Shown one piece after another: positions 1 to 6,476 of a stretch of 6,476 nucleotides of DNA. The stretch's first letter is position 1. The number at the start of each line of letters is the position of its first letter. The notes beneath the pieces are model-generated. The model had not been told where the DNA came from, made no database searches, and saw only the letters and a list, made by a program, of their open reading frames with translations. Origin of the DNA: a virus (lineage: Duplodnaviria > Heunggongvirae > Uroviricota > Caudoviricetes); the IMG/VR virus record IMGVR_UViG_2663763280_000003, positions 1 to 6,476 of that record, one strand, 5' to 3'. Made by a program: the position numbers and the translations under genes.

Positions 1-138
1 CATTACGGTATTCCGGCCACGCTGCGGGGCATGGTGAACAACGACTTGAAGGCCACGGCTGACGCCGTGTTGTCCCTGGTGAAAGACGGCGCAACTGATG
101 GTGTTCAGATCGACCCGACGCTGTTTTCATCATCTTGA
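1..138 (+). CDS. 3' end of an ORF entering from upstream of the window (about 45 codons, ...DPTLFSSS*); product unknown
   Basis: Frame 1 is open from the window edge to TGA at 136-138; co-directional with the downstream prophage genes. No recognisable motif. Confidence 0.3.
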
Positions 139-182
139 TGAGATGATGCCTGTTATTTATACCCCAACCGTCGGCGCAGCCT

Positions 183-425
183 GTGAGCGTTTTTCTGAGA
201 TCTACCGCCGTTCACGCGGCGTGTTTATCTCTTACCAGAACCGGCACAATACAAGTTAACCGCTGGTTCAAAGATCACTACGGAGTGCCCGTCAGAGTCA
301 TTCGTTGGGAGCCGGAAACACAACGAGTTATCTACCTCCGCGAAGGCTATGAGCATGAGTGCTTCAGCCCGCTCGAACAGTTTCGTCGTAAATTCAGGGA
401 AATAGAGGTCGGTCATGAGCACTAA
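183..425 (+). CDS. hypothetical small protein (80 codons, GTG start, no in-frame ATG)
   Basis: ORF from the six-frame track. Its TAA stop (423-425) overlaps the ATG (415) of the downstream replication gene, a typical phage operon arrangement. No clear Shine-Dalgarno upstream of the GTG; a competing antisense ORF exists at 225-422. Confidence 0.35.
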
Positions 426-1356
426 ATTAACCGGCTATGTATGGGATGGTTGCGCTGCATCAGGCATGAAATTATCCAGCGTGGCAATTATGGCCCGCCT
501 GGCTGATTTCAGTAATGACGAAGGTGTGTGCTGGCCATCAATTGAAACTATTGCCCGTCAGATTGGCGCGGGGATGAGTACCGTCAGGACGGCTATCGCA
601 CGGCTGGAAGCAGAAGGCTGGTTAACGCGTAAGGCGCGTCGCCAGGGTAACCGCAATGCGTCGAATGTTTATCAGCTTAACGTTGCGAAGCTTCAGGCAG
701 CGGCATTTTCTCAACTGCCAGATTCTGACCCGTCAAAATCTGACGCATCAAAATCTGACCCGTCAAAATTTGATGCGTCGAAATCTGGCAAAAAAGCGGG
801 TTTTCACCCGTCAGAATCTGGCGGGGATCCGTCAGTAAAATCAAAACATGATCCGTCAGATAAAAAACCTTCTCGTCCGGACGCTTCGCAACCGGACACG
901 CAGACGGATGAACAGGATTTTTTAACTCGCCATCCTGATGCGGTTGTATTCAGCCCTAAAAAGCGCCAGTGGGGAACGCAGGATGATTTGACCTGCGCAC
1001 AGTGGCTCTGGAAAAAAATCATCGCCCTGTACGAGCAAGCCGCCGAATGTGACGGCGAGGTGGTTCGTCCCAAAGAACCGAACTGGACAGCCTGGGCAAA
1101 CGAAATTCGCCTGATGTGTGTGCAGGATGGTCGTACTCACAAACAAATCTGCGAGATGTACAGCCGCGTCAGCCGCGATCCGTTCTGGTGCCGTAACGTG
1201 CTCAGCCCGTCGAAGTTGCGGGAAAAATGGGATGAGCTTTCCCTGCGCTTATCACCGTCCGTCAGCACGTACACCGAAAAACGCGAAGACCCGTACTTCA
1301 AATCCAGTTACGACAACGTGGACTACAGCCAGATCCCGGCAGGATTCAGGGGGTGA
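415..1356 (+). CDS. phage replication initiation protein: N-terminal helix-turn-helix DNA-binding domain, repetitive SDPSK linker, DnaT-like C-terminal domain
   Basis: 313-aa ORF with GAGG Shine-Dalgarno before the ATG. The N-terminal segment (…IETIARQIGAGMSTVRTAIARLEAEGWL…) is HTH-like. The C-terminus …YSQIPAGFRG closely resembles the C-terminus of E. coli primosomal protein DnaT (…SQIPPGFRG), recalled from memory. The central linker is encoded by tandem 15-bp repeats. Confidence 0.85.
   Translation: MSTKLTGYVWDGCAASGMKLSSVAIMARLADFSNDEGVCWPSIETIARQIGAGMSTVRTAIARLEAEGWLTRKARRQGNRNASNVYQLNVAKLQAAAFSQLPDSDPSKSDASKSDPSKFDASKSGKKAGFHPSESGGDPSVKSKHDPSDKKPSRPDASQPDTQTDEQDFLTRHPDAVVFSPKKRQWGTQDDLTCAQWLWKKIIALYEQAAECDGEVVRPKEPNWTAWANEIRLMCVQDGRTHKQICEMYSRVSRDPFWCRNVLSPSKLREKWDELSLRLSPSVSTYTEKREDPYFKSSYDNVDYSQIPAGFRG
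724..869. repeat. iteron-like array inside the replication gene (candidate phage origin): four tandem 15-bp units plus three dispersed CCGTCAG core copies, followed by an A-rich tract
   Basis: Tandem units tctgacccgtcaaaa (724-738), tctgacgcatcaaaa (739-753), tctgacccgtcaaaa (754-768), tttgatgcgtcgaaa (769-783). Further core copies ccgtcagaatctg (808-820), ccgtcagtaaaatc (829-842) and ccgtcagataaaaaacc (853-869). Analogous to lambda ori lying within gene O. Confidence 0.55.
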
Positions 1357-1358
1357 TC

Positions 1359-1655
1359 ATGAGTCTTTTGAATGAAGTTCAGAAATTCATTGAAGCCCAT
1401 CCGGGATGTACTTCCGGAGACATTGCGGATGCTTTTGCAGGTTACTCACGGCAGCGCGTTCTGCAGTCAGCAAGCAAGTTACGTCAGAGTGGGCGTGTGG
1501 CTCACCGTTGTGAAGGAGATACACGCAGACATTTCCCGCGCCTGACTGAGAGAGCGCAGGAACCGGAACCACAACCAGTTCGAGAAACCAGACCTGTGCG
1601 CAATTTCTATGTCGGCACTAACGATCCACGGGTGATTTTGTGCCTGACCCGCTAG
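1359..1655 (+). CDS. hypothetical small phage protein, possibly a winged-helix DNA-binding protein
   Basis: ATG at 1359 preceded by a GGGGG Shine-Dalgarno-like run (1349-1353); an alternative GTG at 1353 overlaps the upstream TGA (1354-1356). Ends at TAG 1653-1655. The N-terminal segment (…CTSGDIADAFAGYSRQRVLQSASKLRQSGRV…) is HTH-like. Confidence 0.55.
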   Translation: MSLLNEVQKFIEAHPGCTSGDIADAFAGYSRQRVLQSASKLRQSGRVAHRCEGDTRRHFPRLTERAQEPEPQPVRETRPVRNFYVGTNDPRVILCLTR

Positions 1656-1706
1656 GCTGAAGAACTGGAGTCCAGGGGCTTATACCGTCGTGCTGCAACC
1701 GTGTGG

Positions 1707-1847
1707 ATGGCGGTATTCCGTGAAAGCCACTCCCAGCCAGAACGAAACAATTTTCTGGCGCGTCGTGAGCAGTGCTTACAGAAAAGCAGCAAGCGCGCTG
1801 CATCGGGTGAAGAGTGGTATCTGTCAGGGAATTACGTGGGGGCTTAA
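1707..1847 (+). CDS. possible small ORF (46 codons from ATG 1707), or the downstream part of the preceding gene interrupted by an in-frame TAG
   Basis: The frame stays open from directly after TAG 1653-1655 through to TAA 1845-1847, which overlaps the Dam ATG (1847) as TAATG. No obvious Shine-Dalgarno before ATG 1707. Too short to be listed in the ORF track. Confidence 0.25.
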   Translation: MAVFRESHSQPERNNFLARREQCLQKSSKRAASGEEWYLSGNYVGA

Positions 1848-2500
1848 TGAGTAATAAATATTGTCAGGCACTGGTGGAACTGCGGAACAAACCAGCCCAT
1901 GAACTGAAGGAAGTGGGCGATCAGTGGCGCACGCCGGACAACATTTTCTGGGGAATTAACACCCTGTTTGGCCCGTTTGTTCTGGATCTGTTCACTGACG
2001 GTGATAACGCCAAATGTGCCGCGTATTACACGGCGGAAGACAACGCGCTGGCGCATGACTGGTCAGAACGCCTTGCGGAGCTTAAAGGTGCTGCCTTTGG
2101 TAATCCCCCATACAGCCGCGCCAGTCAGCATGAGGGGCAATACATCACCGGCATGCGTTACATCATGAAACATGCCAGTGCCATGCGTGATAAAGGCGGG
2201 CGCTATGTTTTCCTGATCAAAGCTGCCACCAGTGAAGTGTGGTGGCCGGAAGATGCGGACCATATTGCTTTTATTCGCGGGCGTATTGGTTTTGAACTGC
2301 CTGCCTGGTTTATCCCGAAGGACGAGAAGCAGGTGCCGACAGGTGCTTTCTTCGCTGGTGCTATTGCTGTTTTCGACAAGACCTGGAAGGGACCGGCAAT
2401 CAGCTACATCGGGCGCGATGAACTTGAGGCATGTGGTGAGGCGTTTCTGGTGCAGGTTCGCCAGCAGGCGGAAAAACTGGTCAGGGAGATGGCGGCATGA
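1847..2500 (+). CDS. phage-type DNA N6-adenine methyltransferase (Dam family), orphan
   Basis: NPPY catalytic motif in …AAFGNPPYSRA…; the N-terminal …WRTPDNIF… is typical of phage Dam methylases. ATG 1847 is preceded by a GGGGG run; an upstream in-frame GTG at 1814 is an alternative start. No restriction endonuclease gene nearby. Confidence 0.85.
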   Translation: MSNKYCQALVELRNKPAHELKEVGDQWRTPDNIFWGINTLFGPFVLDLFTDGDNAKCAAYYTAEDNALAHDWSERLAELKGAAFGNPPYSRASQHEGQYITGMRYIMKHASAMRDKGGRYVFLIKAATSEVWWPEDADHIAFIRGRIGFELPAWFIPKDEKQVPTGAFFAGAIAVFDKTWKGPAISYIGRDELEACGEAFLVQVRQQAEKLVREMAA

Positions 2501-2823
2501 CGACGTTAACTCAATGCCAGCAGCAGGTGCTGGATATGCTGATTTCTTACCAGCAAGAACGTGGCTTCCCGCCAACTAATCAGGAGGTGGCAACCATGCT
2601 GGGATACCGTTCAGTGAATGCAGCGGTAGAGCATCTTCGCGCACTGGAGAAAAAAGGCGTCATCACGATAAAGCGTGGCGTGGCCCGGGGGATAACGCTT
2701 CATACCGCGGTGAAGGACGACGACAGCGAGGCGGTCGGGATTATCCGCGCACTGCTTGCCGGTGAGGAAAACGGCAGGCTGCGTGCAGCCCACTGGTTAC
2801 ATGAGAGGGGGCTGAAAGTATGA
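2497..2823 (+). CDS. LexA N-terminal DNA-binding-domain-like protein (108 aa) lacking the S24 peptidase domain
   Basis: MTTLTQCQQQVLDMLISYQQERGFPPTNQEVATMLGYRSVNAAVEHLRALEKKGVITIKRGVARGITL aligns residue-by-residue with E. coli LexA 1-70 (MKALTARQQEVFDLI…[36 protein letters not shown]…SRGIRL), recalled from memory. The start ATGA overlaps the Dam stop and the stop overlaps the rusA ATG. Confidence 0.75.
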   Translation: MTTLTQCQQQVLDMLISYQQERGFPPTNQEVATMLGYRSVNAAVEHLRALEKKGVITIKRGVARGITLHTAVKDDDSEAVGIIRALLAGEENGRLRAAHWLHERGLKV

Positions 2824-3209
2824 AGCTGATCCTGCCGTTTCCCCCCAGCGTGAACACGTACTGGCGACACCCCAACAAAGGGGCTTTTGCAGGTAAGAGC
2901 CTGATAAGCGCGGCGGGGCGTAAATTCCAGGGCGCGGCGTGTGCCGCCATCATTGAGCAGTTACGCCGTCTGCCGAAACCAACGTCGGCACCAGCTTCAG
3001 TGGAGATCGTGTTGTTTCCTCCGGATAACCGGATCCGCGATCTGGACAACTATAACAAGGCGCTGTTTGACGCCCTGACCCACGCGGGTGTGTGGGAAGA
3101 CGACAGTCAGGTGAAAAGAATGCTGGTGGAGTGGGGACCGGTTATCCCGGAAGGGAAGGTCGAGATCACTATCAGTAAGTACGAGAAACCGGCGGGTGCA
3201 GCCGCCTGA
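2820..3209 (+). CDS. rusA: RusA-family Holliday junction resolvase (crossover junction endodeoxyribonuclease)
   Basis: LPFPPSVNTYWRH and DLDNYNKALFDALTHAGVWEDDSQV correspond to the RusA motifs LPWPPSNNRYYRH and [31 protein letters not shown] Shine-Dalgarno upstream; 129 aa. Confidence 0.9.
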   Translation: MKLILPFPPSVNTYWRHPNKGAFAGKSLISAAGRKFQGAACAAIIEQLRRLPKPTSAPASVEIVLFPPDNRIRDLDNYNKALFDALTHAGVWEDDSQVKRMLVEWGPVIPEGKVEITISKYEKPAGAAA

Positions 3210-3228
3210 TTAAGAGGAGAAACGAAGT

Positions 3229-4026
3229 ATGAATAATCTGATGGTCATTGATGGTATTGAAGTTCGTCGTGATGCTTATGGTCGTTACAGCCTGAACGAT
3301 CTGCACAGGGCTGCCGGTTCTCTGGATAAGCATAAGCCTGCATTCTGGCTCCGCAATGAGCAAACTGAACGTTTAATAAGCGAGTTGCAGATTTGCAACT
3401 CGGTCAATATAGAGCCAGTTAACGTTATTCGTGGCGGAAATAACCAGGGGACGTATGTCTGCAAAGAACTGGTGTATGCCTATGCAATGTGGATCAGCCC
3501 GTCATTCCATCTGAAGGTGATCCGTACTTTCGACATGGTAACCAGCGCACCTGAAAAATTATCCGGACAGGCTGCTGACAAGATGCAGGCTGGCGTGATT
3601 CTGCTGGACTTTATGCGCCGGGAGTTAAATCTGTCTAACTTTTCAGTGCTTGGAGCCTGTCAGAAACTTCAGGAGGCTGTTGGCTTACCGAATCTGGCAC
3701 CGCGCTATGCCATTGATGCTCCTGCTGACGCGCCTGATGGCTCAAGCCGCCCCACGCTGTCACTGAGTGCATTGCTGAAGCAGTATGGTATCCGCCTGAC
3801 AGCTAATCAGGCATATCACCAGATGGTGAAGCTGGGGATCGTCGAGCAGCGCGAACGATACAGCCGTACCGCGATTAACAACATCAAAAAATTCTGGTCG
3901 CTGACGGCGAAAGGCTGCATGTTCGGCAAGAACATTACCAGTCCTGCAAATCCGCGCGAGACGCAGCCGCATTTCTTCGAATCCCGATTCCCTGAGCTGT
4001 TAAAGCTGCTCGATACCGTTCATTGA
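3229..4026 (+). CDS. KilA-N domain protein (phage antirepressor-like; C-terminal half uncharacterised)
   Basis: Strong Shine-Dalgarno (AAGAGGAGA) before the ATG. The N-terminal ~110 aa (…YSLNDLHRAAG…PAFWLRNEQTERLISEL…GTYVCKELVYAYAMWISPSFHLKVIRTFD) matches the KilA-N/APSES-type fold pattern. Confidence 0.8.
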   Translation: MNNLMVIDGIEVRRDAYGRYSLNDLHRAAGSLDKHKPAFWLRNEQTERLISELQICNSVNIEPVNVIRGGNNQGTYVCKELVYAYAMWISPSFHLKVIRTFDMVTSAPEKLSGQAADKMQAGVILLDFMRRELNLSNFSVLGACQKLQEAVGLPNLAPRYAIDAPADAPDGSSRPTLSLSALLKQYGIRLTANQAYHQMVKLGIVEQRERYSRTAINNIKKFWSLTAKGCMFGKNITSPANPRETQPHFFESRFPELLKLLDTVH

Positions 4027-4027
4027 G

Positions 4028-4285
4028 GTGACCGTGAGAGCACTACTGACCCCTGAAATTGCCCCGCGTATGGGGATCGTATTGTTCAGACCAGGTTCAG
4101 AGCTGATGCCCCTGTTTATGCAGGGGCGTGTACTGCTGGAGCCTGAGCCGGAACGTTATTCATCTTTCGCCAGTGGTGCCGTTCCCGCGGCATCACAACC
4201 GCTGGCGGATGATCCTGCTGTTCGGGCCGTGTTCCGCAATGAGGCAGTGATCCGTCGTGCTGGTGGCGTGGAATGTCTTGAAAGC
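4028..4285 (+). CDS. hypothetical protein, 5' portion only; reading frame runs into the N-containing breakpoint
   Basis: GTG starts at 4028/4034 immediately after the KilA-N stop, after a GAGGTGA motif. The frame is open to the N run; no recognisable motif. Confidence 0.35.
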
Positions 4286-4295
4286 NNNNTACGNN
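4286..4295. other. ambiguous bases (nnnntacgnn) coinciding with a sequence breakpoint
   Basis: N characters are directly visible. Sequence to the left is the phage ORF; sequence to the right is the gltX 5' end on the opposite strand. Confidence 0.9.
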
Positions 4296-4353
4296 CGCCG
4301 CCAACGTGCAGATAGCCTGTTGGGCTTGGCGCGAAGCGAGTTTTGATTTTCAT
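4286..4353 (-). pseudogene. gltX: 5' fragment of glutamyl-tRNA synthetase gene (first ~20 codons only; truncated at the breakpoint)
   Basis: The minus strand from the ATG (complement of 4351-4353) encodes MKIKTRFAPSPTGYLHVGG, the GltX N-terminus including the class I HIGH-type motif region. Translation beyond the Ns no longer resembles GltX. Confidence 0.8.
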
Positions 4354-4566
4354 GAAATGGCCTTACGTTTAGAAAGATGCCGACAACCGGCAAATCCTGG
4401 AAAAATTGAGTGGGCGATATTCTATCACTCCCGCCTGATTCCTCAATGTAGTTCGGGTTTCTACCTTACGCATTATTGTTTTCGTTGACAAATTGCGCAA
4501 CACGGTCTGTTTTGCGATCATCTTGCTTAAATTTACGACGAACGAACAATTTCTTTAGAAAATGCG

Positions 4567-4594
4567 TTGACTCATTTTGAACTCTCCCTATAAT
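4567..4594 (+). promoter_or_regulatory. sigma70 promoter of the tRNA operon (-35 TTGACT 4567-4572, 16-bp spacer, -10 TATAAT 4589-4594), with an AT-rich upstream region
   Basis: Near-consensus hexamers about 18 bp upstream of the first tRNA. The AT-rich upstream tract (4500-4565) is typical of stable-RNA promoter UP/Fis regions. Confidence 0.6.
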
Positions 4595-4611
4595 GCGACT
4601 CCACACAGCGG

Positions 4612-4687
4612 GGGTGATTAGCTCAGCTGGGAGAGCACCTCCCTTACAAGGAGGGGGTCGGCGGTTCGATCCCGTCATCACCCACCA
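4612..4687 (+). tRNA. valU: tRNA-Val (anticodon UAC)
   Basis: 76-nt sequence GGGTGATTAGCTCAGCTGGGAGAGCACCTCCCTTACAAGGAGGGGGTCGGCGGTTCGATCCCGTCATCACCCACCA with cloverleaf, TAC anticodon in the CTTACAA loop and encoded CCA. Confidence 0.95.
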
Positions 4688-4731
4688 ACTACTTTATGTA
4701 GTCTCCGCCGTGTAGCAAGAAATTGAGAAGT

Positions 4732-4807
4732 GGGTGATTAGCTCAGCTGGGAGAGCACCTCCCTTACAAGGAGGGGGTCGGCGGTTCGATCCCGTCATCA
4801 CCCACCA
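4732..4807 (+). tRNA. valX: tRNA-Val (anticodon UAC), second identical copy
   Basis: Identical 76-nt sequence to 4612-4687. Confidence 0.95.
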
Positions 4808-4853
4808 CTTTCTCGCCAGCTAAATTTCTTGTAAAAATGTGAAGTACCGAAGT

Positions 4854-4929
4854 GGGTGATTAGCTCAGCTGGGAGAGCACCTCCCTTACAAGGAGGGGGT
4901 CGGCGGTTCGATCCCGTCATCACCCACCA
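4854..4929 (+). tRNA. valY: tRNA-Val (anticodon UAC), third identical copy
   Basis: Identical 76-nt sequence to 4612-4687. Confidence 0.95.
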
Positions 4930-4933
4930 CTTC

Positions 4934-5009
4934 GGGTCGTTAGCTCAGTTGGTAGAGCAGTTGACTTTTAATCAATTGGTCGCAGGTTCGAATCCTGCAC
5001 GACCCACCA
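4934..5009 (+). tRNA. lysV: tRNA-Lys (anticodon UUU)
   Basis: GGGTCGTTAGCTCAGTTGGTAGAGCAGTTGACTTTTAATCAATTGGTCGCAGGTTCGAATCCTGCACGACCCACCA; anticodon loop CTTTTAA, encoded CCA; lies 4 nt after the third tRNA-Val. Confidence 0.95.
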
Positions 5010-5013
5010 ATGT

Positions 5014-5041
5014 AAAAAAGCGCCCTAAAGGCGCTTTTTTG
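5014..5041 (+). terminator. rho-independent terminator of the tRNA operon
   Basis: AAAAAAGCGCC-CTAAA-GGCGCTTTTTTG: GC stem, 5-nt loop, T-run. Confidence 0.8.
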
Positions 5042-5147
5042 CTATCTGCGATACTCAAAGATTCGAAGCTGCCGCAGGTTCGAGTTGAGCGCAGCGAAAC
5101 AACGGAGCCGCTCGCGGCGACGGCCCGAAGGGCGAGCGAAGCGAGTC

Positions 5148-5208
5148 ATCCTGCACGACCCACCAATGTAAAAAAGCGCCCTAAAGGCGCTTTTTTGCTA
5201 TCTGCGAT
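5148..5208. repeat. 61-bp direct repeat of 4992-5052 (tRNA-Lys 3' end plus terminator); second copy of a partial tRNA-Lys whose T-arm is interrupted by ~64 bp
   Basis: atcctgcacgacccaccaatgtaaaaaagcgccctaaaggcgcttttttgctatctgcgat occurs at both positions. Upstream of the second copy, cgcaggttcga (5073-5083) resembles the tRNA-Lys T-arm, followed by a GC-rich insert. Confidence 0.8.
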
Positions 5209-5314
5209 TTGCGAAATTGCCTGATGCGCTTCACTTAGCAGACGACTATTTCCGGCAATTCCTGTCTCCTCACCTACTGTGTCAATGCAGCCAACAGCTT
5301 AACCATCGCGGGCG

Positions 5315-5630
5315 TCACCTGCTGTGTTTCCAGTAGCGCCACTGCCAGCGGCCCGCGTCAGGGAGAAAATCATTCGCCAGCCCATCCATATGCAGCACGA
5401 AATCGCCCAGTTCATTTTCATGCGCCTGCAAAATGGCCTGCAAACGTCCGTCAACACCACGTTGGGTGACTTTTACACCCGCTAAAGGCCAGCGGATTTC
5501 ATCGATGTCCAGCGAATCGATGACTCTTCCCTTTGAACGAAGTAACGCGCCTGGCTCAAAGGTCAGCGTTGGGTCAGACAGACTTCCACTTAGCTGCGCA
5601 GGAACGACGAACGCAAACTGAATGGTCATT
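5315..5630 (-). CDS. unidentified coding fragment (about 105 codons, no recognisable N-terminus); possibly the 3' part of the convergent neighbour gene
   Basis: Long open frame on the minus strand. In E. coli K-12 the gene after lysV is xapR on the opposite strand, but I cannot confirm identity from sequence. A different minus frame ends …QQVTPAMVKLLAALTQ* at 5274, hinting at a frameshift or another junction. Confidence 0.3.
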
Positions 5631-5682
5631 ACGCCGTTTATTACGTGCTGTCGATGGAGAAGGGCACCAAGTGTTGGGTAAC

Positions 5683-5884
5683 GGTTCGCGTCCCGATGCC
5701 GTTGCTGCAACACAGCAGGGCGTTTTTAGTTTCCTCACCAAGCCTGTCGACAAAGACGCGCTATATCAGGCAATTGACGATGCGCTGGAGCAATCCGCGC
5801 CAGCCACCGATGAACGCTGGCGCGAGGCAATTGTCACCCGCAGCCCGCTGATGCTGCGTTTGCTGGAACAGGCGCGGCTGGTGC
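5683..5884 (+). pseudogene. glrR: internal fragment of the sigma54-dependent response regulator GlrR (YfhA/QseF)
   Basis: Encodes …PDAVAATQQGVFSFLTKPVDKDALYQAIDDALEQSAPATDERWREAIVTRSPLMLRLLEQARLV, matching the GlrR receiver/linker region as I recall it. Identity is lost abruptly at ~5884. Confidence 0.7.
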
Positions 5885-6064
5885 TTCCGCCAGGTCGATA
5901 CCGGTGTAATGACCATAACCGAATTTACCCATCCATTCGGAGAGGCGATCGATCCCCATATCGTAGGCCACCTGATAGAAGAAGGTATCCGCAGATTCTT
6001 CCAGCGATCTTGTGACATTCAGACGCCCGTGGCCCCATTTTTTCCAGTCACGATAACGTTTTTC
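5885..6064 (-). pseudogene. mrdA: internal fragment of penicillin-binding protein 2 (MrdA)
   Basis: The minus strand encodes …[60 protein letters not shown], matching PBP2. Abuts the glrR fragment on one side and the gad fragment on the other. Confidence 0.7.
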
Positions 6065-6065
6065 C

Positions 6066-6224
6066 AAAGTACAGAACGCCTCTTACCAGGTTGCCGCTTA
6101 TCTGGCGGATGAAATCGCCAAACTGGGGCCGTATGAGTTCATCTGTACGGGTCGCCCGGACGAAGGCATCCCGGCGGTTTGCTTCAAACTGAAAGATGGT
6201 GAAGATCCGGGATACACCCTGTAC
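6066..6224 (+). pseudogene. gadB: internal fragment of glutamate decarboxylase (gadA/gadB; the paralogues are indistinguishable here)
   Basis: Encodes [53 protein letters not shown], matching the Gad C-terminal region. Identity is lost at 6225. Confidence 0.7.
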
Positions 6225-6226
6225 TT

Positions 6227-6367
6227 GTTTATGACATGCCTGGCACGACGCGTGACAGTATCTACATTCCAATGGAACGCGATGGACGTGAGTATGTGCT
6301 CATTGATACCGCTGGCGTACGTAAACGCGGCAAAATCACCGATGCTGTAGAGAAATTCTCCGTAATC
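6227..6367 (+). pseudogene. der: internal fragment of the GTPase Der (EngA)
   Basis: Encodes [47 protein letters not shown], matching a Der GTPase domain. It is in a different frame from the preceding gad fragment. Confidence 0.7.
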
Positions 6368-6376
6368 AGGTGAATA

Positions 6377-6388
6377 GATCGGAAGAGA
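6377..6388 (+). other. AGATCGGAAGAG, identical to the first 12 nt of Illumina TruSeq adapters, at a fragment junction
   Basis: Exact 12-mer lying between the der and envZ fragments. Only 12 nt match, so a chance occurrence cannot be excluded, but the context supports read-derived chimerism. Confidence 0.35.
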
Positions 6389-6389
6389 A

Positions 6390-6476
6390 AGTTCATTTGC
6401 CCGTACGTTATTGCTCATCGTCACCTTGCTGTTCTCCAGCCTGGTGACAACTTATCTGGTGGTGCTGAACTTCGCG
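6390..6476 (+). pseudogene. envZ: 5'-proximal fragment of the osmosensor histidine kinase EnvZ (N-terminal transmembrane segment)
   Basis: Encodes SSFARTLLLIVTLLFSSLVTTYLVVLNFA, matching the EnvZ N-terminus (…SFARTLLLIVTLLFASLVTTYLVVLNFA…). No start codon or promoter context is present. Confidence 0.7.

Follow-up and report, generated by a model that had tools for sequence, protein, structure and literature searches.

A phage-borne LexA DNA-binding domain without a protease domain in the nin-type operon of lambdoid prophages: a possible RecA-insensitive LexA surrogate

Gp6 of GIL01, a tectivirus of Bacillus thuringiensis, is a phage protein that consists of a LexA DNA-binding domain (DBD) only and is 44% identical to the DBD of the host LexA (PMC6182141). 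It activates the late promoter P3 from a palindrome of its own, GaCACAnnTGTGaC, and the same promoter is repressed by host LexA together with gp7 (PMC6182141). Gp6 binds this palindrome at nanomolar concentrations without any C-terminal domain (PMC6182141; Fornelos et al., NAR 2018). The N-terminal domain of LexA that is set free by self-cleavage also still binds DNA, 10-1000-fold more weakly, and its removal by ClpXP is needed for full SOS induction (PMC11442139); a stable, dimerising version of this domain would therefore be expected to act at operators. Two further phage systems serve for comparison. The Gifsy phages carry an operon in which a LexA box precedes dinI and the antirepressor gene gfoA or gftA, and no LexA-like gene is mentioned in its description (PMC3121763; Lemire et al., PLoS Genet 2011), while Stx phage PA8 encodes an MT-A70 methylase with a winged-helix subunit, PNB-2, that retargets the enzyme to 16S rRNA (PMC10810198; Gong et al., NAR 2023). 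Here we analyse a protein of 108 residues encoded between dam and rusA in a stretch of 6,476 nucleotides from a virus of the Caudoviricetes (positions 1 to 6,476 of IMG/VR record IMGVR_UViG_2663763280_000003), referred to as a whole as the window. Like gp6, it is a phage-encoded LexA DBD without a protease domain. We predict, tentatively and with rather less than even confidence, that it is a RecA-insensitive LexA surrogate, which would sit on LexA-type operators as a hairpin-mediated dimer during lytic development. The gene and its two structural parts are located as follows:

2497..2823, plus strand: stand-alone LexA-DBD protein, 108 aa (PF01726, PHROG 362; RefSeq 'LexA family transcriptional regulator')
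2497..2700, plus strand: winged helix-turn-helix, residues 1-68 (alignment to E. coli LexA)
2716..2805, plus strand: C-terminal helical hairpin, residues 74-87 and 91-103, family-specific (DSSP on the AlphaFold2 model)

The 108-residue protein aligns over residues 1-65 to the entire PF01726 LexA_DNA_bind profile (positions 1-65 of 65, E 2.5e-19). No match to Peptidase_S24 (PF00717) was found in it, and PF00717 is likewise absent from all of the 120 matches listed of 169 in a close-homologue search. An earlier note on the window, made from the sequence alone, had described the protein as a LexA-type DBD that lacks the S24 domain and cannot autocleave, and this description holds. Ser119, Lys156 and the C-terminal dimer interface of LexA are absent, and because there is no S24 domain, the protein cannot be inactivated by RecA-stimulated self-cleavage. 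On the LexA model TIGR00498 it scores 69.8 bits, below the cut-off of 110.95, and by this measure it is not a LexA. Residues 1-108 match the PHROG 362 profile of 106 positions from end to end (1-106 of 106, E 1.7e-58). A member of the Klebsiella lineage matches the same profile (E 1.6e-41), and a profile search of 1.84 billion representatives returned more members, of 104-118 aa and with the tail covered; in relatives at 36-50% identity, length and tail are unchanged. Among 50 distinct close alleles the ratio of nonsynonymous to synonymous polymorphism (pN/pS) is 0.049. Both halves of the protein are constrained when compared with a 66%-identical Citrobacter copy, and in the tail pN is well below pS against locus L005. 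The protein is thus a member of a real family under strong purifying selection. That a full-length LexA or CI has simply been truncated here, a reading which the earlier note had also weighed, is ruled out by the lack of an S24 domain in the homologues listed, the fixed length and the strong selection. Proteins of 65-150 aa that consist of a LexA DBD alone occur commonly in sets of predicted viral structures. Several high-scoring proteins (P0126, P0128, P0129, P0135-P0137, P0139 and P0140) carry two LexA DNA-binding domains in tandem and may be single-chain 'dimers' of the LexA domain. No functional study of the PHROG 362 family was found in the searchable literature library, and the existing records carry predicted names only ('unknown', 'LexA DNA binding domain protein', 'transcriptional repressor').

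The AlphaFold2 (AF2) model of the protein, with a predicted local distance difference test score (pLDDT) of 81, consists of a winged helix-turn-helix (residues 1-68), a low-confidence linker (69-75) and the helices 74-87 and 91-103. Its best Foldseek match is the E. coli LexA-DNA complex 3jso, with a root-mean-square deviation of 1.1 Å over 68 residues at 50% identity, so that the comparison with the LexA DBD proposed in the earlier note supports a LexA-type fold. Identity to residues 1-69 of E. coli LexA is again 50%, and the profile matches to LexA chains of the PDB end at residues 70-76. The recognition helix, SVNAAVEHLRAL, is nearly the same as that of LexA, with S39, N41, A42, E45 and H46 kept. 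In LexA, the DNA is contacted by Ser39, Asn41, Ala42, Glu44 and Glu45 (PMC3091678); four of these five residues are kept in the window protein, in which Glu44 is replaced by Val. The tail hairpin was unmatched by any LexA structure in the PDB profile and Foldseek comparisons, and its hydrophobic pattern is conserved in the relatives at 36-50% identity. We consider this hairpin a candidate dimerisation element.

As the earlier note had stated, the window contains no canonical SOS box: two CTGT-N8-ACAG sites with one mismatch are at chance level, and the best score on a position weight matrix of E. coli operators is 8.6. At a threshold of at least 20 bits, 80 loci that carry the gene (756 kb) contain 49 boxes, spread over 44 of the loci, where about 0.2 would be expected from shuffles. 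The 80 lambda-NinB-type control loci without the gene (727 kb) contain 3 boxes in 3 loci, and phage lambda has no box at this threshold. The SfII-type cI gene has a perfect consensus box, TACTGTTTTTATATACAGTA, within its coding region (SfII, L097, 29167-29186; also in L002, L003, L005, L016, L022 and others), at linker codons (..SNTVYKNSN..). This box is conserved in a Citrobacter allele and may act as a roadblock, as a promoter within the gene or in antisense, or as one that drives a C-terminal fragment. A near-consensus box, TACTGTAAAAATAAACAGTG, covers the first codons (MKNTVKINSV) of an N6_N4 methyltransferase gene between Q and the lysis genes (L016, 8908-8927; L299, the SfV record with the orf48 type, 34170-34189; L093, 6739-6758), and this second phage methylase is therefore apparently LexA-controlled. 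Where at least 6 kb of upstream sequence is available, the LexA-like gene lies upstream in 24 of the 28 loci with this methylase box. In Klebsiella pneumoniae prophages, a consensus box is followed by dinI, orf75 (PHROG 1813), the LexA-like gene (PHROG 362), orf67, DUF968 and Q (73 of 80 loci), and in L093 a consensus box stands ahead of orf75, the LexA-like gene and RusA. The Klebsiella operon is found at:

L092 513-1518, also L218-L297: Klebsiella box-dinI operon

These correlations tie the PHROG 362 family to the circuitry of LexA operators, and do so across several modules that are independent of one another; with the boxes in cis in related phages the non-inducible LexA mimic suggested in the earlier note gains indirect support and is plausible. 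In the mechanism that we propose, the hairpin would take the place of the LexA C-terminal domain in dimerisation, and the dimer would bind LexA-type operators, that is SOS boxes or close variants of them. The protein would be made from the phage early operon while host LexA has already been cleaved, and such a phage-owned surrogate would bring LexA-controlled phage genes, and possibly SOS genes of the host, back under control. Candidate targets would be the cI-internal box, the methylase box after Q and the box of the Klebsiella dinI operon, with either repression or activation as the outcome. This role is supported by the LexA-like fold, the four kept contacts, the boxes in cis and the precedent of gp6.

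A number of observations weigh against this proposal. Glu44 is kept in no member of the family, its place being taken by V, T, F, A, L, Y or Q, and the Klebsiella and L093 lineages, in which the box lies directly upstream, lack both Glu44 and Glu45 (L44/L45 in the Klebsiella protein); these losses mean that the specificity may differ from the canonical box. Gp6 itself recognises its own site and not a LexA box. Dimerisation through the hairpin is an inference, and the predicted template modelling score of the AF2 model is only 0.55. As for the boxes, host LexA alone suffices to account for their existence, their enrichment is confounded by lineage with a few module types giving most of them, and the window itself is without a box. 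The matrix was built from E. coli operators, and its matches are plain TACTGT-N8-ACAGTA sites.

The substitutions in the recognition helix bear in particular on a different explanation, by which the protein would be a dedicated regulator in the manner of gp6, recognising a palindrome of its own instead of the SOS box and activating or repressing a single phage promoter, delayed-early or late. Position 44 is systematically changed and some lineages have lost position 45 as well, gp6 acts in just this way and is the one phage protein of the LexA-DBD-only kind that has been characterised, and the LexA-like protein evolves faster than RusA, being 42-66% identical where RusA is 69-91% identical, as is typical of regulators that change their specificity. 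However, the window protein retains four of the five LexA contacts and 50% identity to the LexA DBD, no conserved non-SOS palindrome was identified, though no systematic search for one was made, and the co-occurrence of the gene with canonical boxes would have to be a coincidence. We consider a dedicated regulator of this kind possible, though somewhat less likely, and retain the RecA-insensitive LexA surrogate as our tentative proposal.

Within the window, colinearity with a real genome is limited to positions 251-4285, which match a prophage found in many E. coli chromosomes (98.3% identity). This block comes from the early-right (nin-type) operon of a lambdoid E. coli prophage of the SfV/SfII/e14-like kind. 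All genes of the block lie on the plus strand, and stop and start codons overlap or abut throughout. Besides the LexA-like gene the block contains:

415..1356, plus strand: replication initiator, lambda O-like (HTH_36; PHROG 391 E 5e-135, PF13730), the first complete gene of the block
1359..1847, plus strand: PerC-family gene (yfdN; PHROG 23071 and 1324; annotated yfdN, 164 aa, in L001)
1847..2500, plus strand: Dam, phage N6-adenine methyltransferase, 217 aa (PF05869, TIGR01712)
2820..3209, plus strand: RusA Holliday-junction resolvase, 129 aa (PF05866 E 9e-15)
3229..4026, plus strand: KilA-N domain protein, antirepressor-like, the next gene of the operon (PF04383 E 2e-26, PHROG 129)
4028..4285, plus strand: DUF968/HNH gene, 5' part (PHROG 96 and 11007), ended by Ns and the chimeric join

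In L001 and SfII the DUF968/HNH gene is full-length and followed by Q. The order in intact relatives (the E. coli APEC O2-211 prophage and Shigella phage SfII) begins with cI, cro, a cII-like gene, the O-like gene and PerC and continues with Dam, the LexA-like gene, RusA, KilA-N, DUF968, the antiterminator Q and lysis; the block is the nin-equivalent part of the early-right operon. Inside the O-like gene, at 724-787, a 15-nt unit, TCTGACCCGTCAAAA, is present in 4.3 tandem copies that encode DPSKSDASKS repeats of the protein. These repeats look like origin iterons (cf. lambda O), and among the inverted repeats of the phage block nothing convincing as a candidate operator was found beyond them.

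For Dam, the LexA DBD and RusA, Pfam and NCBIfam agree with the assignments of the earlier note. Dam scores 156 bits against PF05869 (E 1e-45, cut-off 28.1) and 255.6 bits against TIGR01712 (cut-off 97.05), its translation contains the catalytic NPPY motif as GNPPYS, and its family is that of HP1/T1 Dam. Pfam and PHROG scans found no restriction enzyme gene in the block, and these profiles identify the enzyme as an orphan phage adenine methylase; its predicted specificity is presumably GATC, as expected from the family (HP1, T1 and VT2 Dam). RusA reaches 55.8 bits against PF05866 (cut-off 22.8) and matches E. coli RusA (1q8r) with E 4e-18, RDLDN and EDD aligning with RRDLDN and LDD, so that its acidic catalytic residues are conserved. 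The catalytic aspartates of E. coli RusA are D70, D72 and D91.

The two ATGA overlaps reported in the earlier note can be read directly, at 2497-2500 between the Dam stop TGA and the LexA-like ATG and at 2820-2823 between the LexA-like stop and the RusA ATG, and the RefSeq gene boundaries agree with those given there. A third such junction, TAATG at 1845-1849, joins the PerC/yfdN stop with the Dam start. The starts are preceded by purine-rich, Shine-Dalgarno-like runs (GGGAGA at 2483-2488, AGGGGG at about 2805-2810 and GGGGG at 1837-1841). The Dam/LexA-like junction GCATGACG is kept in 67 of 70 Dam-bearing loci, and the LexA-like/RusA joint GTATGA in 83 of 84 loci. The three genes are probably translationally coupled; since four-base overlaps are the packing norm of the whole operon, they do not single these genes out. 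A consensus promoter scan of the phage block gave no dedicated promoter above chance in the cassette, and no plus-strand terminator was found in 251-4285. With one coding strand, no terminator and overlapping or abutting codons, the three genes are made along with their neighbours once the phage repressor is lifted. In the SfV record (L299), a putative -35/-10 dam promoter is annotated at 29523-29549, inside the PerC-family orf40; the promoter scan gave no call in the equivalent region of the window. In the window copy, the PerC/yfdN gene is divided by an in-frame amber codon, TAG at 1653-1655, into parts of 98 and 64 aa, which uncouples Dam from upstream translation. This codon is CAG in 73 of 75 related loci, and the TAG recurs in an IMG/VR contig (L009) that is 100% identical over this region.

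The cassette of the three genes (1363 bp) is ordinary and already annotated. Of 5426 complete E. coli genomes, 2673 match it at 95-99% identity (narrower figure 97-98.5%), 1661 of them over at least 80% of its length. It also matches 51 phage records, among them SfII, mEp460, 1720a-02 and phages of the Stx2a and Stx2c types. When proteins were searched, SfV (whose orf42 lies between dam and the rusA-like orf43), the cdtI phage, SfIV and mEp390 were found as well. Annotators have named the products 'phage N-6-adenine-methyltransferase', 'LexA family transcriptional regulator / LexA DNA binding domain protein' and 'RusA family endodeoxyribonuclease'. The stop codon of the LexA-like gene overlaps the RusA start in 84 of 84 related loci, and Dam lies upstream in 67-70 of them. 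Where Dam is missing (14 of the 84 loci, including L016, L036 and L079; junction at about 4998-5003), PerC is joined to the LexA-like gene by TAATGA. The Dam-bearing slot is bounded by the overlap motifs TAATGAGT...GCATGACG (window 1845-2500), and the clean joint in the 14 loci indicates that Dam is a precise optional insertion/deletion cassette. In other phages the same slot holds a C5 methylase, C5 and D12 methylases together or a 392-aa Dam fusion.

Divergent contexts, defined by relatives at 36-50% identity, include PerC-Dam-LexA-like-[moron]-RusA-DUF968-Q, O-like-LexA-like-RusA-Rha/ANT-DUF968-Q, C5 methylase-orf75-LexA-like-RusA-DUF968-Q, C5+D12 methylase-LexA-like-RusA-KilA-N and dinI-orf75-LexA-like-orf67-DUF968-Q, the Klebsiella lineage having the LexA-like gene without Dam and without RusA. 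Among 80 lambda-NinB-type nin regions, none contains the LexA-like gene, 58 contain a Dam homologue and 41 contain RusA. Dam and RusA are thus optional nin-region functions. In the compared sequences, the stable neighbours of the LexA-like gene are RusA in the E. coli lineage and, more generally, the DUF968-Q pair downstream, and the upstream slot is often filled by a methylase of some family. These distributions do not support the obligate co-expression of the three genes that the earlier note had deduced from the overlaps. Of the linkage itself, the LexA-like-RusA pair proves constant in the E. coli lineage; Dam is optional, and Klebsiella has neither partner. A dedicated regulator of a Dam-RusA module, which the note had also put forward, is unlikely, since the gene lacks its own promoter and is retained where Dam or RusA is absent.

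The constancy of the downstream joint could still be explained if the protein were not a transcription factor, but a DNA-targeting or modulating partner of the downstream RusA and DUF968/HNH proteins. The overlap with RusA in every one of the close loci would fit this, as would the position of RusA directly or nearly next to the gene in six of eight divergent contexts and the presence of DUF968-Q downstream in all main lineages with enough sequence, L096 being an exception. At least 73 Klebsiella loci, however, carry the gene without RusA, RusA occurs without the LexA-like gene in 41 of the 80 control regions, and the unequal divergence of RusA and the LexA-like protein points to recombination between the two genes. 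RusA acts by itself as a homodimer. Taken with these points, a partnership of this kind is improbable. Still more improbable, and suggested by analogy with PNB-2, is a specificity or regulatory subunit of the upstream methylase. A methylase does lie directly upstream in the window, the Dam, C5 and C5+D12 families fill the slot in divergent phages, and a phage methylase with a winged-helix partner has been described (PMC10810198); but that precedent concerns an unrelated enzyme family (DPPW MT-A70) with the partner upstream, 58 of the 80 controls have a Dam homologue without the LexA-like gene, and the gene stands without an upstream methylase in 14 of the 84 close loci as well as in the L089-91 and Klebsiella lineages.

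In LLAGEE, the earlier note had seen a remnant of the LexA cleavage site. In the AF2 model this segment (A88-G89) falls at a predicted helix end and the following turn, and most of the relatives at 36-50% identity have lost the Ala-Gly pair, including its Gly. The Pfam and PDB alignments to LexA end at residues 65-76, and the NCBIfam LexA model alone, at a score below its cut-off, reaches residue 91. A functional cleavage-site remnant can be rejected on the helical model, the unconserved Gly and the earlier end of the LexA alignments, and at most LLAGEE may be a historical vestige of such a site. Scarcely credible is an SOS decoy whose Ala88-Gly89 would be cleaved in trans by, or compete for, the activated LexA, UmuD or CI proteases, or else a decaying lexA fragment: LLAGEE resembles VAAGEP and the NCBIfam model aligns through residue 91, but the helical prediction, the loss of Gly in most relatives and the score below the LexA cut-off speak against a decoy, and decay is excluded by the strong purifying selection together with the family-wide conserved tail.

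The window as a whole is a chimeric assembly. Its flanks (1-250 and 4286-6476) are unlinked E. coli fragments, and each genome matches the window in 12-24 separate places. Runs of N occupy 4286-4294, and the Illumina adapter core AGATCGGAAGAG is found inside the sequence at 6376-6387 (chance expectation 0), confirming an artefact of the assembly or of the reads at the right end. By names taken from reading translations only, the right flank holds the 5' end of gltX on the minus strand, near 4300-4353, and a valU-type tRNA cluster, and pieces of the flanks resemble a response-regulator gene, mrdA, gadA/B and der. The stretches 4612-5009 and about 4984-5210 hold tRNA-Val(UAC) three times and tRNA-Lys(UUU) once, and a second copy of the tRNA-Lys 3' end and its terminator hairpin follows about 165 nt downstream.

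As a sequence feature the cassette carries little weight: phage genomes that contain it have been published from SfV onwards, and thousands of E. coli genomes have it annotated. Its middle gene, on the other hand, encodes an uncharacterised LexA-DBD-only protein in about half of the complete E. coli genomes, including Stx2a- and Stx2c-converting phages. If this protein binds SOS operators, it would be a widespread phage protein that modulates both the SOS response and prophage induction, and this would matter for the release of Shiga toxin, for induction triggered by antibiotics and for the cross-talk of prophages with one another. That the PHROG 362 family in general comprises phage-made, RecA-proof LexA surrogates which take up SOS operators again once the LexA of the host is destroyed is conceivable, yet we regard it as doubtful. 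Were it true, lambdoid prophages of E. coli, Shigella and Klebsiella could themselves pulse or shut off LexA-controlled phage genes, with cI, the late-region methylase and the dinI-antirepressor operon as candidates, and could possibly dampen the SOS response of the host and the induction of co-resident prophages.

Among the described systems, the methylase of PA8 resembles the locus, by analogy only, in that a phage methylase shares its transcript with a small protein of the winged-helix type. It differs in being a DPPW MT-A70 enzyme, where the window has an NPPY enzyme of PF05869, with its partner upstream and in another part of the genome; as an MT-A70 DPPW enzyme with an upstream partner, that rRNA-methylase system is ruled out as the same cassette. 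The Klebsiella arrangement of box, dinI, orf75 and LexA-like gene resembles the Gifsy operon and takes the same early-right-arm position; this is a likeness of layout only and does not imply homology of orf75 to the antirepressors, and the arrangement in the window differs from a Gifsy-type operon. The cassette itself recurs with the same genes, order and overlaps, at 94-99% protein identity, as orf41(dam)-orf42-orf43(rusA) of SfV and in SfII, SfIV, mEp460, cdtI and Stx2a/2c phages (PHROG 362; RefSeq WP_000210188). With host LexA (E. coli; TIGR00498; 1lea, 1jhh, 3jso) the window protein shares the DNA-binding fold, whereas it has no S24 domain and no conserved cleavage site, and its Glu44 is replaced. 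In comparison with gp6, the window protein has a hairpin tail where gp6 consists of the winged helix-turn-helix only, and gp6 belongs to a tectivirus of a Gram-positive host. By a likeness that rests on a shared Pfam domain, both are phage-encoded LexA winged helices without S24 at about 44-50% identity to the DBD of host LexA, and gp6 too is encoded among early genes, in a phage that also carries operators for host LexA.

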